A stretch of DNA of 44,752 bases from Parasteatoda tepidariorum (GCF_043381705.1 NC_092214.1:2460096-2504847); one strand, 5' to 3'; shown: positions 19,262 to 44,752, numbered from the stretch's first letter. Notes: generated by a model from the sequence alone, not told the origin. A program made the numbers and translations.

Positions 19262-19360
19262 TGGGCTGTTTGCACATTTGCTATTTCAGCACAATTATTA
19301 CTAATATGAACTACATTTAAATTCTTTCTAATATCCATTTACGCTTAAAAAATAATTTTC

Positions 19361-21804
19361 TCACAGAATCACCATCATACCAGGTTTAATAATGTCCCAT
19401 ATTACTTTGGTACAACCTTGACAAAGAGGATCAGATACAACACCCATTATGTACAGGTGTCTCCTGAGGATGCAGTGTCCAGTGAGGAGACCAATGTTCC
19501 TCAAACTGTTCCTGTTTAGCTTAAGAAGCTCTTTATGACGCACACTTTGACAGTTATGATTCAGCTCTTTAGCCTGTCTCTTACAATCCGAGTTGCACCA
19601 TTGCTCCTGGGTAATTTTGCCATAGAGCTTGAAAATAGATGCCATGAACGATGTGAGTGAGATTCCCAAAGTTGGTTCAGGTCCCCAGAAAATCACACTG
19701 GAGATGGCTTGTGTTGCTTCTTCAGCCAGCTCATTTCGAAAAATATCCTATATGTCCAGATACCCAATGTAGGTATATTTTGTTACGAGTAGAAAGGTCA
19801 CAAAGAACTCAGAAGCATTCCCACACTAGTGAAGAAGTGAATTTACACTTTGATAAGAGAGCAGCCTGACTGTCAGAACAGATTTGGATAGGTATATTTA
19901 GATAATCCCTGTTTAAGCATATCCTGCAGCTCAAGATAATAGCTTTGACCTCAGCCTGAAAAGCAGTGGCTTAACTACCTAGAGGAAAGTAGAGTATGGT
20001 ACCATCATTGGAGCAGTAAATTCCTGCCCCTGCTTTAAGACCAAGCCTTGATACATCAGTGTCCCATACCAGACACTTGCCTTCAAGCCATCGAGAAGAT
20101 TTAGTCCATTCATGTCTAGTAGGAAAATGGATCTTGAAGGGCTTATGAAAAGCCTTTCAAGACTATGCAAGACTTACTAGGCATGATAAAAGAAAAAATA
20201 TCTGACACCTGCAAAACAAGATGACCCCTTGACAAATGCTTGGAATATTCCTTCCATAAGCCGAGGTACATAAGATGTTTAATACCTGTCTGAGCTTCAG
20301 CTTCAATTCAATGGGAGAAGCCCAAGTAAGCTCTCAAGAGCAGCTGCAGGAGTGGTCCTGAGACAGCCTGACAAGGCTACACAGACCTTTCTTTGCAGTC
20401 TGTTAAGACTTGACCTGATGGAGCTGATCCTAATCCTAGACCACCAGACAATAGCGCCATGTTTGTCAATGGGGTTAATAATCATTGAGTACATCCTGTA
20501 AACTGAGCTATCTTGGGGCATAACCCCCAGGTTCTACCAATAGCATTTCTGCAAGACCAGGATATCATCTTGGCCCTGTGGATACAGTATTCTAGATGAG
20601 AACCCCAGTTATGTTTGGAGTCTTTAAAATCACCAAGAAATTTGACTTTCACAGTTAGTTCTAACCTATAATCTAGGTAATACACATCACCTAGATTAAG
20701 AAGCCTTTTCCTGGTGAAGGCCACAAGACTTATCTTGGAATTTTTAACAGATAAGCCAGATTCAAAGCATTATCTAGCTACTTCTGGAAGTGCACTATTC
20801 ATGATTTCAAATACTGTTTTACCATAATTGCCTCTGACAACAATATCACCATCATCAGCATACCCAACACAGGGAAGGCCAAGATTGGCTAGCCAAACTA
20901 GCAGAGTCCATAACCATACACCTTAATGATGGGTGACGAAGCCCCTCCTTGAGGGCAGCCTAAAGTAGCATGAACTCTCATGCTTGTGCCCAGTAAAGAG
21001 GAACAAACATACCTGGAGGACAACTGATTAGCTATCCACCTGGTGATATCCAGATTGATACCTCTGGTTTTAAGTGCATTGATGATAGTCTCAACAGGGA
21101 CTTTGTCAAAAACATCTTCAATATCAAAAAAATACCGCCAGAGCAATCTCTTCATCTGAGAGTGCTTTCTCAAGCATGAAGGAGAACTCATATAAAGCAG
21201 AGTCTATTGATAGCAGAGAGCCAGGTTGATAAGCATAGCATACTGTGAGGAGAACAGTGGCTTATCAACGAGTACAGAGTCTCTAAAATATCTGCCAATA
21301 AGTTTTTCTATGGCTTTCAACAGTTATGAAGTGAGGCAAGACAGACAAGAGGTGAGGCTGATTGGTCTAAATGATTTAGCCTCAAAGTAATTTTCCTTAC
21401 TTGGTTTTGGGAAGAAAATTACCCTGGTATTCCTCCAAGAATGAGGTTTATACCCAAAGGCTATACAGGTTCAAAAGATCCTACATAGAATAGAGTATAG
21501 TATGTCAATCTCCTTAGTAAGCATTACAAGTATGATATCATCCATACCTGGTGACTTATAGGGCTTAAATATTTAATAGAGCATATTACTTTTCGTAGGA
21601 GATCACCATCTTGGGGGCCTCCCAGTCATTTTCACTGTAAGTAGCTGTAGGACTTTTGAAAACATAGTCATTCTCTACAGGATGAAATCCAGGGAAGTGA
21701 GCTTCAAATAATTCACCAAGAGCCTCTTCGTCTGACTCACTATATTTTCCGTTTGTAAGATTGATAGCTGTCGGAGCAGCACAACAGATTTTTGTACTCA
21801 ACAC
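19361..21804 (-). pseudogene. LINE ORF2 (RT and C-terminal zinc-finger region), fragmented
   Basis: As above. ORF-track segments 21586..21804, 20898..21191, 20482..20724, 20303..20521, 19979..20170 and 19361..19696 all belong to one decayed ORF2. Confidence 0.7.
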
Positions 21805-21822
21805 GACAGATTTTTGTACTCA
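21783..21822. repeat. 17-bp tandem duplication (ACAGATTTTTGTACTCA twice) at the junction between the two LINE fragments
   Basis: Direct reading of acaacagatttttgtactcaacacgacagatttttgtactcag. Confidence 0.7.
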
Positions 21823-22350
21823 GAAACATAATTGAACAAAGTCTGGAAATGAATTCTTCCTTATACTTAACTTTTATTGATTTCAGTAAGGCATTTGACT
21901 TCCTGCTAGGTGTTTTCTGAATTTCATTTTAGCCATAAGGTTTTCTTGTTAATCCTGATTTAGGGTTTTGGTTCAATAGACCTCTGGTCGATGTGACCTG
22001 CTTTTTGGAGCTGCCCAACCTCTGAGTCTAAGACATTTGACTCTCTCAATAAGGGTATGCTGTGGATGATCTTAAGGAATTATCCCTGAAAAAATTTTAA
22101 ACATCATAAAGAGTATTTTTGACAGCAGTAAAGCCAGTGCAGAAGTTGATGGCACACTGACTAGATCATTTAATGTTCAAAAAGGAGTAAGACAAGGCTG
22201 TGTCCTTGTGGAATTCCTATTTATAATTGTCATCAATTGAATCATGAGGCAAACAATTCAAAATCACATACAATGAAAATTTGACACCACTTTAGAAGAC
22301 CTGGATTTTGCCGATGATATTGTTCTTATATCTAATTTTAATGATCTGAG
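21800..22350 (+). mobile_element. RTE/CR1-like non-LTR reverse transcriptase fragment (plus strand)
   Basis: The plus-strand translation gives ..IIEQSLEMNSSLYLTFIDFSKAFDFL, ..LWMILRNYGIPEKI (the printed GIP is my memory of the consensus; the sequence itself reads LRNYP followed by a stop), ..KASAEVDGTLTRSFNVQKGVRQGCVLVEFLFIIVIN*IMRQ and ..LEDLDFADDIVLISN (the FADD box at 22307..22318). It has one frame disruption and two in-frame TGA codons at positions where Trp is expected. Confidence 0.6.
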
Positions 22351-23052
22351 TATGAAAACACTAAGAGGGACCACCTCCCCATATTGGGCCCTCCTCCCAA
22401 GAGCAACATTCTCCCTGGGTTTCCTACCAAGTTGGGTCAGCACACGGGGGGTCGGGCGTTGCATCTGAAGGCCTCTTAGCTCCATCACTTCTCTTAGCGT
22501 CTTCCACTTTTTCTTCAGTTTCTTTCTCTGTCTCTTAGATAGTCCCGCGGTGCCAGGCATACTGTCCCCTGATTGTCTCTGGCCGAAACTCCAACGGAAG
22601 CAGGACTTGTGCCTTTGGACCTCTCCTTGCCAGCATTACTAGCAATAAGCTGCAAAGCAGCAATATTAGCACTGGGCTCACCCAAAGGCATACCATGTGC
22701 TACTGGAGACTGTAGTTTACTTTTCGAACAAGAAACTCTGCCTGATTCCTGAACGCACCCCTTGTTAACTGGTGCAACAGATAATGCTGTATCATAAGGT
22801 TTAACTTGAAGCATCAATTTAAACTGCCTGCCATTTAGTTAGTCAATGAAGAGTATCCAGGGGGTGCCGGCATTAACCCCTCAAATGTTTTGTAAGAAAT
22901 ATAATTTTTGCTAGATTTATTGTTCCTATTGTTCCATAATGAAAACTTATATTTTGCTTGTTGAAGTGATTTTTTTTAATTAGTCAATATGGTATTTAAA
23001 GTTTTGCTTATCTCTTGCTTTTATAAAATTTCACATTTTTTTTAAATTTCAG

Positions 23053-23722: not shown

Positions 23723-24761
23723 TTAATAGGGGGTATGGTCTCCTCTTACAGGTATACAGGCTTTGCAGCATGATTTCATACTTGAAATAAGGCAGTTTAT
23801 CATTTCATGTAGCAATTGGTCCCACTCGTTCCGCAAGACTGTTTTCATTCCCTGGATGGTTCTCGGAGGGGGTAACAAGTTGCAATTGCCCTCCCCAGAG
23901 CATCCCAGATATGCTCTATAGGGTTGAGGCCTGGAGATCTTTCTGGCCAATCCATCAAGCGACTATCCTCCCTTTCTAGAAATTCGTTGACCAGGTGAGC
24001 TCTATGTGGCCGTGCATTATCGTCCATTAAAATGAACTCGGCCAACTACACCCCTGAAAAAGCAAACATAGGGCTCCAAGACCTCATCGCTATACCTCAC
24101 ACCAGTCACATATCCTCATTCAAAGACATGGAGAGGTGTGCGGCTATCCAACATGAGACTTGCCCAGAGACTTATCCAACATGAGACTTTTAAATCTGCT
24201 CCGCCATAATGGTCGATGTCGCGGACATTGAAGGGTAGGTAGTGGGTCCCTGGCTCTCTCCATATGAATGTACAGTGAGAATCTGTGTTTAGGCTGAACC
24301 GGGACTGATCAGTGAAGAGAACCGTCGCCCATTGATCCATACTCCAATCTCTATGCACTATGCTGAGTGGACTCTCCTGTTTGTAGAAGTGAGCGTGACG
24401 CTAACAGGAAGTATTCTTGCAAACAACCCTTTCTGATGAAGTCGTTTGAAAACAGTCGCCCTTGATACACGGGCTCCTGTGGCTGCATACAAGTCACAAG
24501 AGAGTTGAGAAACTGCAGCCCTTCTGTTACGCTTTGCTGTAATGGACACATGGCAATCTTCTCTGCTGTAGTGTTTCTTGGTCGATCTTGCTCAGGCTTC
24601 CTTTCCTTGAATCCGTTATCCTGAAACTGTTTCAATAAGTTACACACGATGCTGGGCTTTAAATTGAACTCTCTACAAGTCTGGACCTGAGATTGACCTG
24701 TTTCTAGCCTTCCCACAATTTGCCACCTCAATCCATCATGTAAACGTAGGTGGTTACTCAT
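23723..24761 (-). pseudogene. Tc1-family DD34E-type transposase, split over at least five frames
   Basis: Conserved blocks appear in order on the minus strand. They are the N-terminal HTH (LRWQIVGRLETGQSQ..LLKQFQDNG..RKPEQDRPR), then RNRRA..SQLSCDL..RVSRATVFKRLHQKGLFAR, then HRDWSMDQWATVLFTDQSRFSL...FIWREPG, then FILMDDNARPHRA...MDWPERSPGLNPIEHIWD, and finally C..KACI..RGDHTPY. Each is in a different frame. Confidence 0.8.
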
Positions 24762-25004
24762 TTTTACTGTTACAATATAAATTTAACCTATTGCTGCAAA
24801 ATAATACCAAAAAGTTCGCCAAGGTGTGCTAGCGAATGAAATGCGGCTTAATTTACGCTCACTTATATAGCCTGTTTCTTTACTGGTTACGCCTACACAC
24901 ATGTGTACGATTATGTCTGTACTAAGATGTGCAAGATTTGCATTTTTATCTAGAAGCAGTAGTTTAGCATTCAGTTCAGTTCTTTTCATGAAATTCGATA
25001 AAAT

Positions 25005-31293: not shown

Positions 31294-31482
31294 TTAAAAT
31301 ATTTTCATCACTAATATATCATTAATAGTTAAAATACTTTTAGATTTTTTTGTTGAACATTTAACATTATTTGTGGAATATTTACCTAAGTGAATTAATC
31401 TGTTTAATTTTTTTAAATAATATTTATCTTTCATCATATGAGAAGTAGTGCCAGAATCAAGAATCCATATTTTTTTAATCAA
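31294..31482 (-). mobile_element. Possible Ty1/copia protease remnant
   Basis: The ORF contains KKIWILDSGTTSHMM, which resembles the copia protease active-site block (W/Y)(I/L)LDSGA(S/T)xHM. Only about 20 aa are diagnostic and no flanking copia domains were found. Confidence 0.3.
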
Positions 31483-32349
31483 TTTTAATAGAATATTCTG
31501 ACTGTTCTTAGTCAGCTGTAGGTGTTTTTATAGTTTCTATACTAATTTAATAAGTTATTAAAAGTTGAAGAAAATTAGATTTGCAGGGCATATTTATCTT
31601 TTAGACAAAACTAGCCCAACTTTTCTGACTTGAGCTGATTGGTAAGCTAGAAGACAACCAAAACTTGCAATGGCTTAGCTTCATTAACACAGATTTTAAA
31701 GCAATTAAGATTTTGAACTGACAAGTTCAGGTGACAGAGAACAGCTAGAAGAAATGTTCTGTGGAAGACCCACCCCGAGCTTTTATACCAACGATAGTGA
31801 TTTTCATTTTCACAATTGAAATAAAGTTTTTAGAGTATGTTTGAATTTGAAGATCACTACTAGTCTAATCAGCATTTGAGAACTTGTTTCTGTTTTTGAA
31901 GATTTTATTTTCTCCTTTCTTTAGAAATGTTAAATTTATTAATGAAATAGCTAGTTTTTTCTATATGATTTGTCTTCTTGGAAATGTAGAACACTTTATT
32001 CATGTTATTTTTATTTCGTGTTTAGATACAGAAGGCTTCATTTTTCTCTGTAGAGTCATTCTTTTTTCTTTTTTTTTTGTAATTCTAGATATCTTTTGTG
32101 TCTAATGTCATCATAAATGTTAAAATTCTTATCAGGGAATTTTCAAAATTTCTTCAAGTTGTTTTTTTTCTATGTGTTTTTTAAATTCCCCAATTTTTGC
32201 CCATTTTTTTCTTTTTGTTCCATGAACAGTGTAATAAACTAATTCTCTTAATGAAATTTCAAGTCCTAAGCAAGATTTTAAGCAATTTCAAGTCCTATGC
32301 TTTTGATTTTTGTGCTAGCATCAATTTTCTGATTTTTCACTTTTCTAGA

Positions 32350-32782
32350 TGTATAAGTTTCGGTGATGGGAATGTAAGACTTTCAAATGAAACAATATGG
32401 CAATGAAACATCCTCTTTAATAGTAAAAGTTAACAAACCATCAAGAAACTTCACAAACTCCAATTAACAAGTTATTCGTTAAAAAAACATTAAAAGTTGT
32501 TATTAAAAGAACAATTAAAACTTAAACTTTTGATTGTAAATATCTCATACAGCAGGTGGGCGTCACCTGGTAGAAACGGGATATCAGGACGAAGTCTCAA
32601 ACACTGTACAACAACCCCTTTTCACTCCCTGCCTTGGCCGCCGGTTGATGCTCCTCCACCGGGATTCATCCGCGCAGGAACTATTTCGGTTCGTCCTCCT
32701 ACCTTCGGACTTCGATCCAATACTCGATCCTTCTACCTCGGTTTTCATGCTACCTCAGCTGTCGCAACCAACAGCCTCTACA
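32350..32782 (-). repeat. 3' LTR (in element orientation) of the gypsy-like element
   Basis: About 95% identical by eye to 36884..37307, with about 20 substitutions plus one indel of about 9 bp near 32540. It starts TGTATAAG and ends CTCTACA on the plus strand. Confidence 0.85.
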
Positions 32783-33586
32783 GTAGCCCCCTCCCAGCGC
32801 TAGTGAGACTTTTCCAGCACATTGCTGATACTTTCCCTGAAACTTAACTCGACGGCCTGGTCGTGTCTTAACCTCTTTTGGCATGTCACTAGGGTCTGGG
32901 ATAGTAGATTCCTCTGTAGATTCGCTCATAACTGTTGATTCGCTTTTAGGAAATATGTCCTGTTCACCTCGGGATACATATGCTGGTTTTAGATAATCCA
33001 CATTTACCGTAATTTCCCGCCCATGAATAAGAATCCTAAAAACCTTCTCCCCTCGACTCAGCACTTGAAATAGACCCTCGTATGGTGGCTGCAGGCCTTT
33101 TTTCAGGACATCGGTCCTCAGGAATACATGACTGCACGATGAAAGGTCTTTACTTACAAAAACTGCTCTATGACCCTGATGTCTGGACTTTACTGGCAGC
33201 AACTCCTGCATGGTCTCTTTGAGCTTTCCAACAAGGTTTGCGGGATCCGCTGTACCAGTAGACGGACATAAAAATTCTCCAGGCAGTCGTATCGGAGCTC
33301 CAGAAACCATTTCCGCTGTCGTTGCTTGCAAGTCTTCCTTCCATGCAGCTCTAAAACCTAAAAGAATCGTAGGTAAAACTCTGGTCCACTGACTTGTATT
33401 GTAGGCTCTAATCGCTCCCTTCATCTGTCTGTGAAATCTTTCCACTTGACCATTTCCTGCGGGATGATAAGGGCTTGTTCGATGACGAGCCGAACCCAGG
33501 AACTTAGTCAGGGCATCGAACAGTGAGGCTTCGAACTGTGTTCCCTGGTCTGTTGTGATGCATAGAGGTATTCCAAATCTAGCAAT
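32750..33586 (-). CDS. Integrase core and C-terminal GPY/F domain, same frame as 33587..35326 after the TGA
   Basis: Reading through the TGA gives IARFGIPLCITTDQGTQFEA...PYHPAGNGQVERFHRQMK (the DD..E core), then LQPPYEGLFQVL (GPY/F). The ORF ends in the PPT/LTR. Confidence 0.8.
   Translation of the reverse strand: MARFGIPLCITTDQGTQFEASLFDALTKFLGSARHRTSPYHPAGNGQVERFHRQMKGAIRAYNTSQWTRVLPTILLGFRAAWKEDLQATTAEMVSGAPIRLPGEFLCPSTGTADPANLVGKLKETMQELLPVKSRHQGHRAVFVSKDLSSCSHVFLRTDVLKKGLQPPYEGLFQVLSRGEKVFRILIHGREITVNVDYLKPAYVSRGEQDIFPKSESTVMSESTEESTIPDPSDMPKEVKTRPGRRVKFQGKYQQCAGKVSLALGGGYCRGCWLRQLR
32787..32795 (-). other. Polypurine tract GGGAGGGGG immediately upstream of the 3' LTR
   Basis: The minus strand reads CTGGGAGGGGGCTAC|TGTAGAGG.., where TGTAGAGG begins the LTR. 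Confidence 0.55.
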
Positions 33587-35326
33587 TCATCCAGCATAGA
33601 AAATCTCAGCAACCGATTTGGCTATTATATCTACGAGCGGGTAAACTTCTGGCCACTTGGGAAAACAGTTGACGCAAGTTAGACAATAGCGAAAACCTTC
33701 TGATGGCGGCAAGGGACCTACGATGTCGATGTGCACGTGCTGGAACCTGGAATTTGGTGGAACAAATGTACCAAGCTTGCTCTGCGTGTGACGTGTCACC
33801 TTAGAACGTTGGCAAGCTAAGCATTGCTGAGCCCATGTCCTAACATCTTTCTTTATACCAGGCCAAACATATCGCTCTTCCACCAACCTTATAGTAGCCT
33901 TAATACCTGGATGTGAAATAGAATGCAGTTTGGAAAAGACGTTTTTTCTGTCCACTTTCGGTACGAATGGTCGAATCCGTTTGGTAGATACATCACAAAA
34001 CAGTTCCACACCAGGATCACTTATTACGAATGGTTGAAGTACTAAAGATGAGTTACCGGTTTGAGCTAAAATTTCGGCTAGTTCCTGGTCACCTTTTTGG
34101 TTGTCAGCCATTTCTTGAAAATTGACGTGGGAAGGTGTTTCTATGGTAGCAATGTTTACTCGGGACAGCTCATCTGCAACCACATTATCTATTCCCTTCA
34201 CGTGCTGAATATCCGTAGTGAATTGGCCAATAAAATCCAAATGACGCCATTGTCTTGGCGAACACTTATCTTCCTTTTGTTTAAAGGCATATATAAGCGG
34301 CTTGTGGTCAGTGTAGATAGTAAACGGCCGACCCTCTACCATATGACGAAAGTATTTGACTGCCATGTACACAGCCAAGAGCTCTCTGTCGTAAGCACTA
34401 TACTTTTTTTGAGATGGTGCAAGCTTCTTTGAATAAAAACCAAGCGGTTGCCACTCTTTCTCGATCCACTGATGCAAAGCAGCACCCATCGCAGTATCTG
34501 AAGCGCCTACCACCATCGCCAACTGTGCATTCATGACAGGATGGTACAGCGTTGTTGAATTTGCCAATTCTTTCTCGCTCTTCACAAAGGCAGCAACTGC
34601 TTCCTCCGACCACTCGATCGCGCTTTTATCATTTTTCTTAGCACCTTTTAAATATTCCTTCAAAATTGCTTGAGTGTGGGCAGCTCTCGGTATGAATCTT
34701 CTATAAAAATTCAAGACTGCAAGAAATCGACGCAGCTCTCTAATTGTAACTGGTTGAGGAAAATCAGCAATTGCAGAAACTTTATCAGGAAGTGGAGTAA
34801 TACCCTTTTCCGTTACACAGTGCCCTAGGAATTCTACTGAAGACTGTCCCAGGACACATTTGCTTATGTTGAGTGTTACCCCATATTGAGCAAAACGTTG
34901 AAAAACTCTTTTTAAATGCATTAAATGTTCTTCTTCGTTCTTCAAAGCTACTAATACGTCATCAAAATAAGGTACACAAAATTCAAACTCATCTAAGACT
35001 TGATGAATGAAGCGTTGGAAAGTTGCGGCAGCATTTGATAATCCAAACGGCATATACAAAAACTCGAACAATCCAAACGGGGTTGTTACCGCAGTCTTTG
35101 GCACGTCTTTGCTACGCACCGGGATCTGATAATACGCTTTTTCCAGGTCCAAGGTAGAAAATATCCTTTTACCTTCCAAAACCTGAAAACAGTCTTGCAT
35201 GTGGGGAACAGGGTACCTATCTGGCACGGTCACACCATTGAGACGACGAAAATCACCACATGGTCGCCAGTCTTTTTTAGCACCATGTGCAACGGACTTG
35301 CCCAACAGCTTTTGGAAGGCTGACAA
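33587..35326 (-). CDS. Reverse transcriptase, RNase H and integrase N-terminal part, ending at an in-frame TGA
   Basis: Contains WRPCGDFRRLN; YQIPV..PFGLFEFLYMPFGLSNAAATFQR; YFDDVLV (the YxDD box); RNase H VVGASDTAMGAALHQ; the integrase zinc finger H..H..CLACQRSK; and HIDIVGPLP (the first D of the DDE triad). Confidence 0.85.
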   Translation of the reverse strand: MSAFQKLLGKSVAHGAKKDWRPCGDFRRLNGVTVPDRYPVPHMQDCFQVLEGKRIFSTLDLEKAYYQIPVRSKDVPKTAVTTPFGLFEFLYMPFGLSNAAATFQRFIHQVLDEFEFCVPYFDDVLVALKNEEEHLMHLKRVFQRFAQYGVTLNISKCVLGQSSVEFLGHCVTEKGITPLPDKVSAIADFPQPVTIRELRRFLAVLNFYRRFIPRAAHTQAILKEYLKGAKKNDKSAIEWSEEAVAAFVKSEKELANSTTLYHPVMNAQLAMVVGASDTAMGAALHQWIEKEWQPLGFYSKKLAPSQKKYSAYDRELLAVYMAVKYFRHMVEGRPFTIYTDHKPLIYAFKQKEDKCSPRQWRHLDFIGQFTTDIQHVKGIDNVVADELSRVNIATIETPSHVNFQEMADNQKGDQELAEILAQTGNSSLVLQPFVISDPGVELFCDVSTKRIRPFVPKVDRKNVFSKLHSISHPGIKATIRLVEERYVWPGIKKDVRTWAQQCLACQRSKVTRHTQSKLGTFVPPNSRFQHVHIDIVGPLPPSEGFRYCLTCVNCFPKWPEVYPLVDIIAKSVAEIFYAG

Positions 35327-35628
35327 ACCCCTGATGCTACCAGAAATTCAAACTCTTGTTTTGCAGCCTTCAACTTATCTGGCGATAAACGTCGAGGTTT
35401 CGAAAAAACAGGAGGTCCTTTTGTGTGCATCCAATGTTCTACTCCATGCTTAACTTTTCTTGGCGTGACACCTGACCTAATCAGAGCAGGAAATTCTGAG
35501 AACAAATTGTGGAATTTAGAGTTCTCTAAAATTACCTTTACCATTGAAGCATTCCCAGCATACCGGGTACCTCTTGTTTGCAACTTGGTCAAAGGATCAA
35601 TTACTGCAGCATTTTTGACGTCTACTAA
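35230..35628 (-). pseudogene. pol segment: protease C-terminus and reverse transcriptase N-terminus, ending at a frameshift
   Basis: ..KLKAAKQEFEFLVASGVCQPSKSCWASPLHMVLKK is the conserved RT N-terminal block. The expected continuation WRPCGDFRRLN is in the -1 frame. The shift falls inside the A6 run at plus 35273..35278 (T6 on the plus strand). Confidence 0.7.
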
Positions 35629-35982
35629 TTACCCAAAATTGCGTAAGAAGTCAGCTCCGATAATTGAATGAGGCACGGCAGCGATGATAAAAGGCCAGCT
35701 GAACTCTCCTCTGAGTCCGAGGTCTAATTTCAACAGGCGTTGGCCAAACTTTGGAATCGTCGAACCATTTGCGGTGAACAATTTCATCTGAGAAGACTGG
35801 TCGCTAGATGCATAGGCAGCACGAGGTATCACAGATATGTCAGCTCCCGTATCGATGAGATAACGTGAGGATGTAGACTTGTCCGTCAGATAAAGTCGCT
35901 GAATCATCACTTCGCCGTCACCCTTTTGACTGGATGACGGCCTCAGCAGTTTTCCGGTAAGAATGAACATGGAGGTCTGCAT
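35629..35982 (-). CDS. Retroviral-type aspartic protease, start of pol, closed by an in-frame TAA
   Basis: Carries LIDTGADISVIP, the D(T/S)G active site, and IIGADFLRNFG. The same frame reopens straight after TAA (35629..35631) with LVDVKN.., the usual protease-to-RT junction. Confidence 0.75.
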   Translation of the reverse strand: MQTSMFILTGKLLRPSSSQKGDGEVMIQRLYLTDKSTSSRYLIDTGADISVIPRAAYASSDQSSQMKLFTANGSTIPKFGQRLLKLDLGLRGEFSWPFIIAAVPHSIIGADFLRNFG

Positions 35983-36713
35983 TTTGTCGCTCGTTGTTTG
36001 AATATTTTATGATACCAGCAATACTGTGAACTTGCAGACTGTCGACTTCGGCTAGTAGAGCGTTTCTGACTAGTACTTCTTGACCGGTCACTTGTACGGG
36101 CTTCCAACCGTGAGACACGAGCAGTGATCTCTGTCAATAAAGACCGTAAATCCGTCTGATCCGCTGAACCAGCAACCACGCTGACTGACTGTGCGTTAGT
36201 TGTTGTAGCCATGATACCATCCGCCATCTCTGCCAGCTTGTCCAGGTTATCGTTGGAAATCGCCAAAATCTGCTGAACATTAGTAGGCAACCTCTGCAAA
36301 AATAAAGATTTAAGAAGTTCGTCGTTAATTCTCATGCCGGCTTTATTCCGCATTTCCAGAAGCAGTCTTGAAGGACGGCGGTCGCCAAGTTGCATCCCCG
36401 AAATTAAATCCCTTAAGCGTTGAGCTTCAGATTTAGCATACTGAGCGCACAATCTTTTTTTAAGTGCGGTGAAATGCTTATCCACAGGTGGACAGGTAAC
36501 AATATCACTGATAATCGCCAGTTCCTCCGGTTGTAGAGCAGAAATTACATGGTGAAATTTCGTTGACTCTGTAGTTACTCCAGCAAGAGTGAACTGACTT
36601 TCAATTTGTCTGAACCACAATTCTGGATTAGCTCTCCAAAAAGGTGGTGGCTTTACAGTGACACGAGCAATTTGTTGATCAGCAGTTTCCGTAGATTCGG
36701 GCATTTTTGGCAT
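35943..36713 (-). CDS. Gag-like capsid protein of the gypsy-like element
   Basis: A 256-aa ORF starts about 150 nt downstream of the PBS. It has an Arg/Ser-rich tail and a terminal Cys-His motif, CWYHKIFKQRATKCRPPC. It overlaps the protease ORF by 40 nt in the -1 frame. Confidence 0.7.
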   Translation of the reverse strand: MPKMPESTETADQQIARVTVKPPPFWRANPELWFRQIESQFTLAGVTTESTKFHHVISALQPEELAIISDIVTCPPVDKHFTALKKRLCAQYAKSEAQRLRDLISGMQLGDRRPSRLLLEMRNKAGMRINDELLKSLFLQRLPTNVQQILAISNDNLDKLAEMADGIMATTTNAQSVSVVAGSADQTDLRSLLTEITARVSRLEARTSDRSRSTSQKRSTSRSRQSASSQYCWYHKIFKQRATKCRPPCSFLPENC

Positions 36714-36863
36714 TAATCCAAAATTTATAAGTCTAACAATAGAAGTAATTTGTACTCACGGCTTGCCAAAAATTTTAAAACTTGAAACATACCAGCATTT
36801 CTCCGTGATCCTTCAACTAGGAGAATTTCTCAAATACAGTTTGCAGAAACAGAAATATACGTA

Positions 36864-36881
36864 TTCGTTCACAGGTCACCA
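36864..36881 (-). other. Putative tRNA primer-binding site, TGGTGACCTGTGAACGAA
   Basis: On the minus strand, 2 nt downstream of the 5' LTR end (..CA|AT|TGG..), 18 nt are complementary to a tRNA 3' end of the form ..TTCGTTCACAGGTCACCA-3'. The tRNA species was not identified. Confidence 0.5.
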
Positions 36882-36883
36882 AT

Positions 36884-37307
36884 TGTATAAGTTTCGGTGA
36901 TGGGAATGTAAGACTTTCAAAAGAAACAATATGGCAATGAAACATCCTCTTTAATAGTGAAAGATAACAAACCATCAAGAAACTTCAAAAACTCCAATTA
37001 ACAAGTTATTCGTTTAAAAAACATTAAAAGTTGTTATTAAAAGAACAATTAAAACTTAAACCTTTGATTGTAAACTGCAGGTGGGCGTCACCTGGTAGAA
37101 ACGGGATATCGGGACGAAGTCTCAGACGCTGTACAACAACCCCTTTTCACTCCCTGCCTTGGCCGCCGGTTGATGCTCCTCCGCCAGTATTCATCCGTGC
37201 AGGAACTATTTCAGTTCGTCCTCCTATCTTCGGTCTTCGATCCAATACTCGATCCTTCTACCTCGCTTTTCATGCTACCTCAGCTGTCGCAACCAACAGG
37301 CTCTATA
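36884..37307 (-). repeat. 5' LTR (in element orientation) of the gypsy-like element
   Basis: Direct repeat of 32350..32782 with TG..CA termini. The plus-strand ORF 37031..37342 inside it is an LTR artefact, mirrored by 32497..32847 in the other LTR. Confidence 0.85.
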
Positions 37308-38588
37308 CTAGTGAATATTTTTATTTATTTATAGGTTTCTAGCACTATTTTCATTTTTTCATGGTAAGCTTTTTTCATCTGATAATAAAAGCTTTATGTA
37401 TACCTCTGCACCAACAGTGCTTAGTGCTGTTTCCTTTCTTTTGGTTTTATATCATTAGGGCAATTTTCACACAAAACGCTATTGATTCTCTTTATAGTTA
37501 ACACCATATTTATTTTAATCGATGAAGGAATGTAGTTTACCCTTGTCTGCAATAAAGACGAAAGCAAGTTTCTATCCATGTTGTTGAACTCAAAACTTTA
37601 CATTCCAATTATTCAAGTTGGGAAGTACTTGCAGCAATACTGTCGTGGTGGCCAACTCGGAAGCTTTCAAATTTTGTCATTTAAAATTCATATTTGTACT
37701 GTCTTTTTGTATTTTATCATTTAACTCTCAAAAAGTTCTCAAGACGTAGTGCAATTTGCAAAAAAGGAAATTAACTTCAAAACATCTACATTTTTGATTG
37801 CTTTCTTGCCTAAATTGTTGTTCCAGATTTTCCAGATTGTGACTTCTCCCTATATTTTAAAAGTCAAGAATAAAGACATTAATATACTTATATACAATTA
37901 ATTTTGCACTTTCTCTCACATTTTCTTTACATATAAAAATGTTTTTAGAAACAATACTTTAAATTATGTTCAGAAAAAAAGTTAAAAATAAGAAAAGTTT
38001 GTATAATTTATTCAAGAGTATTTCAAAAAATGTAACGCCATGTAAACCTTTAAAACATATCACAAAGCTACAAAATTAAATATCTCTTAAATCTTCATTT
38101 GTCTTTGTTTTTCTTCTAATCTCTCACAAGCTTTTCACTGATGCTAAATTTCCTTGCAGTAATGTAGTTTTATTTTCTCTAGCATACACAATAACTTTCA
38201 ACTTAAAAAAACTTTTTATCCTGAAAACCTTTGTAGAGATAATAATTTTTATTATGTTTTTTTATTTTAGAAATTTTTATCTTTGATTTTTTCAGAGGTC
38301 TGACACACCCTTATACAATGGGCCGACTTATACTCTGAGTTATGCAGTATTTAGAGAAAGTGCTTTTTGTATTTGATTTTGTAACTTAAAATATCATTTA
38401 CACTAATTCATTAGCAATTTCAAGGTAATATCCTTGAGTCTTAGTATGTGAAAACCCTATAATTTAATCAAAAGTTATTCAAGGTGTTCAGCTATCTGTG
38501 CATTGTACACTTTCAGTAGAGAATTTTTAATCTTTTCATTTTAAATTTGAAATAAGTAAATATGTATCTTATGTATAATCTCTTTCAG

Positions 38589-41900: not shown

Positions 41901-44752
41901 AGTTTTTTTACACTTAAACAAAGGAAGTAGGAATTCGTTTCCTGGTATAAATATATAAGAAAAGTTAATGCTCAATATTGAATTTTGGCCAGCTTTAGGA
42001 TGTATGGATAACTAACTGCTGTTGCATTTTTCTATTTGAGACAAAATGCAAAAATTCTTGTTCATTTTTGAGGTAGGGCAGGAAAAATTGTAAAAATTTT
42101 ATGGAGTCCCTTTTTTTGGTAATGAAGTCAAGATTCTGACATAAATAGTATGTGCTTGTTGTAATTGACTTCTACCTCAACTGTGATCATAAAAATAGAA
42201 TGTATGGCTTGTATTAAATGCAAGTGGCATGATAAAAGATATCAAAGAAGAAACCAATGAATCAAAGGTAGAAATTGATATAGTATGAACGTGACGGAAA
42301 ACAAATTTAACGTTTGAAATAAATAAATAAAAAGGGACACACATAACATAGTGGTGCATGATAGAATAATTAATTCCTACTCAAACCTTTTCTTGCAACT
42401 GCATATCTGCGTATGCATATAGTTTGGGAAAGATAAATAATAATTTAAAGCATAGCCATGAGCATGACAAAATGTTAAAAAGTAGAACACCAGTGAAAAA
42501 ACAGGTTAACATTAAAAGAGTTCTACACAAACTTTAAACAGTTCATAATTAGGAACAATTCAAATATATTTTGCTATGTTCTGTCTAAAATAGAAATACA
42601 GTTCTGTTACTCACAGTAGCAGTGTTTCCTTATCAAAGTTTGAACAAAACATAAGTAATTTACCAAACTATTCAAGCCAAATATAAAGATATATTTTCCT
42701 ACATTAAATTACTATACGATTAATGTTTTAGAAAATGGTTACTTAAAATATGACAAAAATCAAAGTTATTGTGGAGTGATTTACCTTGAGCGAAGCCTAA
42801 ATGCAAATTCACAAGAAAATTAATTTTAAGCAAAAAGAAGAAGAAAATATTTTGCTGTATCATATGGAAAAGGTGATGTCAGTGAAAATATAAAAAGCCT
42901 CATTCGACTTGAGTTATTACTCAAAATGTACTCCTCATTTAGTTGGAAATGGATTTGGCAAAATAAGCATACATGAAAAAAATCAAAGTAGTTTTTTTTA
43001 TGAACTATCTTGTCGAAACATTGCTTGGTTTCCCCCTGTTGCGTACATATGATGAACTACTGACGAACGTATTCACAATTTCTCAAACACTCACAATAGA
43101 AACAAATTCACTGCAATATCACAATGACTTTTAACATTTTAAAAAGTATTGCAAAGCGTTAAGCAAAAGCTTGAATTTTATAAAAATAAATGTGAAAAAA
43201 TTTTTCTTTTTCAATTTGCTGATTAAAATTTTTTTAAATGTGTTTTCAACTCCATTACACTTGCTTTGATTGTTATAAATAATATATTTTAAAAATTTTA
43301 AAAAAAATCATTAGTCTTAAATATTAAGGAATCATGTACACTTATGAAAATTACATGAAAATGACATTAATATGAAATTCTTTTTTTAAGATTAAAACTA
43401 CATTAAAACATTTGACTATTTACTTAAGAAATTGCATTAAAAAAAATCCTTATGGAACAGTGATGGGATTCAAATCATTTAAGAAACGGTAGTCTCAAAA
43501 TATTTTTGGTATTTTTTCAGAAGAAAAAGTAGTTATTATCGAACATAACAGGAACATAAATTAGGACATCGTTATTTTAGTTTTGAATAAAGATGGACTT
43601 CAGGAAAAGACTTTATTTTAGTTTTAAATTGCTTATTTTTTAAATATTTCCTAATGGCTCTTTGATTTTCACTTGATTCTTCCACTTTTTTGTTTTTCAC
43701 TCGAGTATCATCAGCTCTGTGCATACGCTGTAGCCATTTCATAACCAATGACTTTGGATCCCAGTCATTCAGAGGTAATCCCCATTAAAGAAATCATAAT
43801 TATATTTTAAACATTTTTGCTGTTCATCTGTTTCTTGCCTGTGTACAAATGGAATTCATAAGGCTTCTTTCAGGTTCAGCAGAACTTATAGCGACAATTC
43901 TTTAAATATTCTTTGCCTTCTGAATACTCTTAGGTATTACATATGAGTTATAGGATTGTTTAAAAAAAATTTCAGTATAATCCCTATAGTAATTGTTGTT
44001 TATCCAATGCTTAAAAATGTCAAAAACAGTTGATCTTCCTCATTTCTCCCAGGAACAACGATATCTCTGATTTTCCAGTATTTCGTTTCCAAATATTCTA
44101 TGAAACCTAGCAGATTCTGATCAAACTTGTTATCGCGCATTAATGATTTACTGGTTTTCATTAATCTGATTTCAGGATTTTGAATTGTGCTATCTATTAA
44201 CTTTTCCCATGCCAAACACTTAAATTTTGTGCTCTCACTAGAATGGATACATTAAATTTTTTTAGAATTAAAAGTTTTCTCGTAATCTCCATCATTAATA
44301 TTGAGCATTTCAAAAGCTTTAAATGTTTGTTGAATTAAATTTTCTGCTTAAATCGAATCCAAATTTCTCTCTTATAATGCTTTGGACAAAATAGTTTTCT
44401 GTCAAAATATCGATCATAAGGGGCCAGATATTTTTCAAAGTTATCATTTTCTAAGTGTTTCTGCATGCCTGAAATTTTTTAGTTAATTCGAAGAGCAAAT
44501 ACAGAGATGGATAAGCACACCAAACTGCAGTTGTTGATCTTAAACTGCATGCAGTCCAACGTGGCCCCAAAACACATTCAATTTTATTTATTTCATTTCC
44601 AAGCTGCTCTGAGATTTTGAAATTTGGTTTGATTGATGAAAAATTTTATACATTGTATCAATAATATTTTTAAATGATTGACTTCTCTGATTTCTTTTAT
44701 TGAATCATCTGAAAAAAGCTAAAGGCAAGGATTTAAACAATGCCAGGCTATA

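Follow-up and report, generated by a model that had tools for sequence, protein, structure and literature searches.

A decayed Ty3/gypsy retrotransposon copy of the probable CsRn1 lineage in Parasteatoda tepidariorum, with a conserved candidate frameshift signal at the gag-pol junction

A 44,752-nucleotide stretch of Parasteatoda tepidariorum DNA (GCF_043381705.1 NC_092214.1:2460096-2504847), referred to throughout as the window and numbered from its first letter, contains at 32350-37307 a single long terminal repeat (LTR) retrotransposon copy of 4958 bp, and the coordinates assigned to it by a first-pass annotation hold. The copy lies on the minus strand in AT-rich DNA (G+C is about 41-46% in the element versus about 25% in the surrounding DNA) and is very probably an ordinary Ty3/gypsy (Metaviridae) element of the CsRn1 lineage that has decayed neutrally since its insertion. 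The element itself is of a known kind; the only mildly new point is a putative frameshift cassette at its gag-pol junction that is conserved among relatives. The main parts of the copy, in the order in which the element would be read, are the following.

32350..37307, minus strand: whole LTR retrotransposon copy, delimited by its LTR pair, flanking duplication, primer-binding site (PBS), polypurine tract (PPT), gag and pol
37308..37312, minus strand: target-site duplication, upstream copy, ACTAG in the element sense (4/5 bases match the downstream copy)
36884..37307, minus strand: 5' LTR, 424 nt, TATAG...TACA, with its terminal TG mutated to TA (aligned with the 3' LTR)
36881..36873, minus strand: PBS TGGTGACCT, putatively of the tRNA-Trp type, two bases (AT) past the 5' LTR (read from the sequence; compared with relatives and with CsRn1_Cv1 of Calliphora vicina)
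36713..35943, minus strand: gag, an intact open reading frame (ORF) of 256 amino acids (aa; 771 nt), matching Pfam DUF7041 (E=1.4e-25)
35967..36020, minus strand: C-terminal Gag CHCC motif CWYHKIFKQRATKCRPPC (CX2HX9CX3C; read from the translation, motif as defined in PMC2582038)
32825..35955, minus strand: pol in its ancestral extent, decayed, encoding protease, reverse transcriptase, RNase H and integrase (PR-RT-RH-IN; Pfam domains and alignment with relatives)
32795..32783, minus strand: PPT GGGAGGGGGCTAC, adjoining the 3' LTR (read from the sequence; the polypurine region is GGGAGGGGG-CTAC)
32350..32782, minus strand: 3' LTR, 433 nt, TGTAG...TACA (aligned with the 5' LTR)
32345..32349, minus strand: target-site duplication, downstream copy, TCTAG in the element sense (4/5 bases match the upstream copy)

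The two LTRs are identical at 404 of 424 aligned bases (95.3%), differing by 11 transitions, nine transversions and one 9-nt indel (Kimura two-parameter distance 0.049), in agreement with the identity of about 95% and the coordinates first reported for them, and the repeats are direct copies. Both LTRs had been described as running from TG to CA; this is true of the 3' LTR, whereas the 5' LTR now opens with TA and departs from the pattern by one mutated base. The flanks can be read in two ways, either as a 5-bp duplication with one mismatch, which keeps the TG/CA ends, or as a perfect 4-bp CTAG duplication if the LTR is one base longer. By simple arithmetic under an assumed uniform base composition, a flank match of at least 4/5 bases is expected by chance at about 1.6%. 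A repeat finder returned two direct-repeat families that amount to one long pair (32350-32786 and 36884-37311). The LTR start at 32786/37311 that its CTA extension would imply was rejected because the CTAG that precedes the 5' LTR belongs to the target duplication and CTAC is conserved internal sequence in the relatives. No second copy or solo LTR was found elsewhere in the window.

The 5' half of each LTR is GC-rich and the 3' half AT-rich, and within the latter lies a 25-nt tandem repeat with imperfect units (2.5 copies, about 76% matches; 32461-32524 and 36995-37058). Antisense ORFs of 116 aa (32497-32847, plus strand) and 103 aa (37031-37342, plus strand) cross the GC-rich half of each LTR; they show no sign of coding and come as two because the LTR itself is duplicated.

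All long ORFs of 32350-37307 lie on the minus strand. Pol is broken into four ORFs by three lesions, and the pieces were joined into a repaired pol of 1077 aa that was used for the Pfam search. The pol domains so located, with residues referring to the repaired pol, are listed below.

35629..35868, minus strand: protease, DTG present, ending at an in-frame TAA (Pfam RVP, residues 39-118, E=2.2e-4)
34820..35274, minus strand: reverse transcriptase, YFDD present (Pfam RVT_1, residues 237-388, E=2.8e-29)
34220..34612, minus strand: RNase H (Pfam RT_RNaseH, residues 458-588, E=1.7e-26)
33797..33964, minus strand: integrase HHCC zinc-binding domain (Pfam Integrase_H2C2, residues 674-729, E=1.8e-16)
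33461..33751, minus strand: integrase catalytic core with D, D and E present, interrupted by an in-frame TGA (Pfam rve, residues 745-841, E=1e-7)
32969..33151, minus strand: integrase GPY/F module, signature G-L-F (alignment with relatives)

These matches, which fall in order along pol and are preceded by DUF7041 in gag, bear out the gypsy-like PR-RT-RH-IN arrangement with gag that had been read from the sequence. The GPY/F module claimed for the integrase aligns with those of the relatives, although the signature, G-P-F/Y/H in 12/12 relatives, reads G-L-F here. The observations that had been named as telling against the annotation, namely an absence of reverse transcriptase, RNase H or integrase profile matches and flanking repeats that are not direct copies, were both looked for, and profile matches and direct copies were found instead. 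When a protein collection was searched with pol, more than 3800 homologues were returned at E<1e-30. The best of these, at 74% and 73% identity, are encoded on unannotated Logan contigs, while named homologues at about 45-54% come from spiders, a pseudoscorpion, ants, Lepidoptera, Trichuris, and a cestode. A chance origin of the reading is excluded because of the profile E-values together with this number of homologues.

The order PR-RT-RH-IN is also found in BEL/Pao elements, so a BEL/Pao or retrovirus-like element with the same domain order must be considered. Such an origin is scarcely conceivable: Pfam returns the gypsy-type set RVP, RVT_1, RT_RNaseH, Integrase_H2C2, and rve, and no match to Peptidase_A17, DUF1759, or Pao was found in gag or in the repaired pol. 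Further, all pol homologues among the matches listed share one domain set, and all close homologues carry that of the gypsy type.

Placement within Ty3/gypsy depends on more specific features. Members of the CsRn1 clade are marked by a Gag CHCC motif of the form CX2HX9CX3C that replaces CCHC, a tRNA-Trp PBS of the form 5'-TGGTGA(G/C)CCCG(T/A), 4-bp target duplications, a Gag that is conserved over its full length, and a GPY/F module without a chromodomain or env; their gag and pol are either fused or in a -1 overlap (Bae et al., PMC2582038). Identical criteria are given in a study of Calliphora vicina, although the element described there, CsRn1_Cv1, itself has a 6-bp target duplication (PMC3630058). 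The present copy is filed under the CsRn1 lineage because of its CHCC motif, the similarity of its Gag to that of CsRn1_Cv1, its PBS, and its lack of a chromodomain and of env. The CHCC motif is kept in every relative with a readable gag and in CsRn1_Cv1, while Pfam gave no zf-CCHC match in gag. No chromodomain match was returned by Pfam in the repaired pol, and env is taken to be absent because the gap between the ancestral pol stop (32824..32822) and the 3' LTR, which starts at 32782, is only 39 nt long.

For a direct comparison, the full CsRn1_Cv1 sequence was transcribed from Additional file 4 of the Calliphora study (PMC3630058; Mob DNA 2013). Gag aligns with its counterpart at 41% identity over 241 aa (E=8e-57) and pol at 45.6% over 1016 residues. 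The two elements are alike in having two ORFs, with a gag of about 260 aa and a pol of about 1040-1080 aa in the -1 frame; a Gag that matches DUF7041 and carries the CHCC motif; a PBS that begins TGGTGACCT; a GPY module, without env or a chromodomain; a G-rich PPT at the 3' LTR; and a slippery site, stop codon, and hairpin at the gag-pol junction. They differ in that the LTRs of CsRn1_Cv1 are 179-180 nt versus 424-433 nt here, its heptamer is A AAA AAT versus G GAA AAC here, the stem sequences of the hairpins differ, and its ORFs are intact whereas those of the present copy have decayed. Judged from the sequences, an amino-acid identity of 41-46% clearly makes them different families.

The claimed PBS and PPT were both located, the former 2 nt after the 5' LTR and the latter abutting the 3' LTR, and both are conserved in relatives, six of which were fetched as nucleotide sequences (L001-L005 from Logan and L006 from Trichonephila clavipes). 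The PPT/LTR junction GCTGGnGGGGGGCTAC|TGTRG is kept in all six, and TGGTGAC occurs at the equivalent PBS position in L002, L005, and L006. The PBS region here, TGGTGACCTGTGA, and the PBS of CsRn1_Cv1, TGGTGACCTCGCG, are identical over their first 9 bases, and the stretch relevant to matching of a tRNA 3' end is TGGTGACCTGTGAACG. Compared with the published 12-nt consensus TGGTGA(G/C)CCCG(T/A), the first 8/12 bases match. The full published tRNA-Trp PBS (TGGTGASCCC) was looked for in the relatives and was found in none, and the predicted tRNA-Trp PBS match of this sub-group of relatives is a shorter or variant one.

Likenesses to CsRn1 from Clonorchis sinensis, PwRn1 from Paragonimus westermani, and AgCR-1 to -14 from Anopheles gambiae, drawn from their published description, include CX2HX9CX3C, a PBS probably of the tRNA-Trp type, a GPY/F module, a PPT beside the 3' LTR, and the lack of a chromodomain and of env; most AgCR elements also share the -1 overlap of gag and pol (PMC2582038). 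In contrast to these elements, the PBS here fits the 12-nt consensus over its first 8 bases only, the target duplication is 5 bp with a 4/5 match or an offset 4 bp rather than a clean 4 bp, the LTRs end in ACA rather than in the published AAA or ATA, and LTR identity is 95.3% rather than the published >97% (PMC2582038).

Several of these points weigh against the assignment to the CsRn1 lineage. A clean 4-bp target duplication, described as typical of the clade, is not seen; agreement of the PBS extends over 8 bases only with the published tRNA-Trp consensus and 9 with the Calliphora PBS; and the lineage call was drawn from diagnostic features and one published reference element, not from a reference Ty3/gypsy phylogeny. 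Since several lineages have both a GPY/F module and the order PR-RT-RH-IN, the copy might instead belong to another insect or metazoan lineage, such as Mag, Mdg1, Mdg3, Gypsy/errantivirus, Osvaldo, or the chromoviruses. This is nevertheless very unlikely, given that Gag has CX2HX9CX3C in place of a canonical CCHC knuckle and can be aligned from end to end with a published gag of the CsRn1 lineage, that the PBS is probably of the tRNA-Trp type, that there is no room for env, contrary to errantiviruses with a third ORF, and that a chromodomain match is lacking, contrary to chromoviruses.

The CsRn1-lineage copy had been described as nearly intact. To call lesions, the repaired pol was aligned with 12 relatives, nucleotides were compared with the six fetched sequences, and the 3' ends of the seven elements were aligned. 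The description stands for structure and fails for coding capacity, which has been lost through the following changes.

35631..35629, minus strand: nonsense change TTA to TAA in the protease (FG*LVD), Leu in relatives
about 35273/35272, minus strand: 7-nt deletion in the N-terminal reverse transcriptase, dropping the Asn-Gly of ...KKNGDWRPCGD... and shifting the frame
34507..34505, minus strand: RNase H catalytic DAS changed to GAS (GGC), the Asp being invariant in 12 relatives
integrase: CVDR changed to CVNC
33589..33587, minus strand: nonsense change TGG to TGA in the integrase core (AG*IARF), Trp in relatives
33073..33071, minus strand: GPY/F signature G-P-F changed to G-L-F (CTA)
32824..32822, minus strand: lost pol stop, CAA here and TGA or TAA in relatives

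In total, the copy departs from the 12 relatives at 17 positions on which all of them agree, while the catalytic DTG, YFDD, HHCC, and D,D,E residues are kept. A reading of the reverse transcriptase frameshift as a 1-nt loss in an A-run was rejected, as comparison with the six relatives shows a 7-nt deletion. Past the lost stop the ORF gains 24 codons, crossing the PPT and ending inside the 3' LTR at a TAG (32752..32750). The loss of the ancestral stop is also why the coding range first given, 32750..36713, reaches 32750 and so overshoots the ancestral pol stop.

Because of the two nonsense codons, the 7-nt deletion, the lost stop, and the change of the RNase H Asp, the copy is, as read from its sequence, structurally complete but mutationally dead and not autonomous, with only gag still open. 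The presence of every structural part, the intact gag ORF, and the retained catalytic residues could be taken to indicate an autonomous and potentially active element. That the copy is active is highly improbable in view of the in-frame stops, the deletion, the GAS substitution, the missing pol stop, and the altered invariant positions, and also of LTRs that are 4.7% diverged and a 5' LTR whose terminal TG is mutated.

The extent of the damage can be compared with the age of the insertion. An LTR divergence of 4.7% amounts to about 2.4% change per lineage, which by estimate predicts some 75-100 internal-region substitutions together with a few nonsense mutations. Because the LTR divergence predicts such numbers, the damage fits neutral decay and the survival of an intact 771-nt gag is unsurprising. 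Dated as K/2r, the insertion is roughly 1.5 to 10 Myr (million years) old, depending on the neutral rate assumed; a Drosophila-like rate of 1.6e-8 per site per year gives about 1.5 Myr, and slower rates give several-fold more. The earlier description of the insertion as fairly young therefore applies in a relative sense only, the LTRs being 4.7% diverged compared with the >97% identity of published active-looking CsRn1-like copies.

At the gag-pol junction of this otherwise ordinary copy, the reading frame of pol is shifted by -1 from that of gag, as in all six fetched relatives. The junction comprises three putative or observed signals.

35949..35955, minus strand: putative -1 slippery heptamer G GAA AAC, two codons ahead of the gag stop
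35945..35943, minus strand: gag stop TGA
35914..35941, minus strand: 10-bp hairpin, putative frameshift stimulator, 7 nt past the slippery site (minimum free energy -25.1 kcal/mol, z -3.65; fold computed on a 66-nt stretch)

A slippery site followed by a stop codon, a spacer, and a hairpin is how signals for programmed -1 ribosomal frameshifting are classically built, and the layout seen here suggests that Gag-Pol would have been produced in this way. The seven junctions align without gaps, with G GRA AAC in 7/7, the gag stop 0-2 codons further on, a 7-nt spacer, and a 10-bp hairpin; the heptamer is G GGA AAC in four relatives and G GAA AAC in L001 and the Trichonephila copy as well as here. 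Across the seven sequences, 97% of the hairpin pair cells are standard, versus 24-60% in slid controls, and two pairs have changed in a compensatory manner (U-A to C-G and C-G to U-A). The junction of CsRn1_Cv1 has a comparable layout, consisting of A AAA AAU, a stop, a 7-8-nt spacer, and a 9-bp hairpin with an unrelated stem sequence.

Other observations speak against frameshifting at this site. The covariation of the hairpin is modest: 28/500 shuffles reach the observed values, there are seven sequences, and the stem lies in coding sequence. In addition, G GAA AAC is not a canonical X XXY YYZ heptamer, whereas the G GGA AAC of four relatives is. It could also be argued that the offset between gag and pol is a decay mutation of a once-fused gag-pol ORF, as gag and pol are fused in some members of the clade (CsRn1 and PwRn1, PMC2582038; also P0010, P0100, and P0109), this copy has other indels, and its heptamer is non-canonical. 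This explanation is improbable, however, because the six relatives have the same -1 offset, heptamer, stop, and hairpin with gag and pol products that are uninterrupted where the contig covers them, CsRn1_Cv1 has the same junction layout, and a -1 overlap has been published for most Anopheles CsRn1-like elements (PMC2582038).

A more tentative proposal, which on balance is somewhat doubtful, is that a CsRn1-like sub-group shares one compact -1 cassette from spiders to the present host, in which the G GAA AAC variant is seemingly tolerated. This cassette would combine G GRA AAC with a stop that follows after 0-2 codons and with a hairpin of 10-11 bp located 7 nt downstream. If the proposal is true and the cassette is undescribed, the known retrotransposon recoding signals would gain a minor new entry; the conserved junction is, in any case, a convenient and testable example of a retrotransposon -1 frameshift signal.

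The closest relatives found are L001 and L002 (proteins P0001 and P0002) and the Trichonephila clavipes copy (L006, BMAU01018699.1), with pol identities of 74%, 73%, and 54%, respectively. They share with the present copy the PPT/LTR junction, the frameshift cassette, and a PBS beginning TGGTGAC, but differ from it in a nucleotide identity that is about 73% at best and under the usual same-family thresholds, in LTRs that cannot be aligned past the first few bases, and in gag and pol products without interruption over the parts covered by the contigs. Because its nearest relatives found are about 73% identical in nucleotides, the element is probably a family of its own within a well-known kind.

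Two of these relatives have features of their own. The Trichonephila clavipes contig (L006:4730-9436) holds a full related copy with LTRs of 330 nt that are 96.7% identical, PBS TGGTGACCCTGG, the G GAA AAC heptamer, and a compensatory change in the hairpin; immediately downstream of this copy is a Pao-type element. In L002 (3277-3754), the contig order is pol, one LTR, PBS, and gag, a circular permutation that could be due to a collapsed LTR pair, a tandem copy, or reads from a one-LTR circle.

The manner in which an active progenitor of this family would have worked can be outlined from the anatomy of the element and established retrotransposon biology. Transcription would have started in the 5' LTR, and Gag, bearing the lineage-specific CHCC nucleic-acid-binding motif, would have been translated from the transcript. 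Occasional -1 ribosomal frameshifting at G GRA AAC ahead of the gag stop, assisted by the hairpin 7 nt downstream, would have given rise to Gag-Pol. The 3' end of tRNA-Trp placed at the PBS would then have primed minus-strand DNA and the G-rich purine tract the plus strand, after which integrase would have inserted the DNA and created a short target duplication.

For annotation, the 5-kb block can be masked as a decayed minus-strand copy of a CsRn1-lineage Ty3/gypsy element, and its ORFs should not be taken as host genes. The 433-nt LTR together with the repaired gag and pol may serve as a seed for a family consensus in the host genome, and the LTR divergence is usable as a rough insertion date.

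The neighbourhood of the element is AT-rich DNA with transposon debris. The first-pass annotation placed the element inside the second intron of a candidate gene. To look for host exons, every stop-to-stop frame of 40 aa or longer in the two flanking intervals (25.0-32.3 kb and 37.3-44.7 kb) was compared with Pfam, as were the GC-richest frames in 0-17 kb. Among the frames scanned within about 7 kb on either side, the only match was a weak one to Pol_BBD in a copia-type relic, and none came from the 0-17 kb set. The intron placement is thus unsupported, there being no Pfam-recognisable exon within about 7 kb on either side, with short or domain-less exons being possible. No tRNA genes or Rfam families were found in the window, and a search of the assembly collection returned no exact match to the gag product.

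The copia-type relic is a protease remnant at 31297-31527 (minus strand) with the motif WILDSGTTSHM (Pol_BBD, E=4e-4), located about 0.8 kb from the 3' end of the element. Decayed non-LTR pieces of the long interspersed nuclear element (LINE) type occupy 19349-22840 on both strands, with an RVT_1 match at 20901-21203 and an RNase H-like stretch at about 19812-19970 on the minus strand and the reverse transcriptase motifs FADD and GVRQGC at 21768-22465 on the plus strand, a layout that suggests nested or inverted pieces. A decayed Tc1/mariner-type transposase lies at 23726-24782 (minus strand), with helix-turn-helix matches at 24354-24782, DDE_3 at 23848-24045, and a frame that is broken between them. 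Finally, several moderately GC-rich open frames are present at 43575-44645 (minus strand), and these, which gave no Pfam match, resemble remnants of hAT-type or ZMYM1-like transposases.

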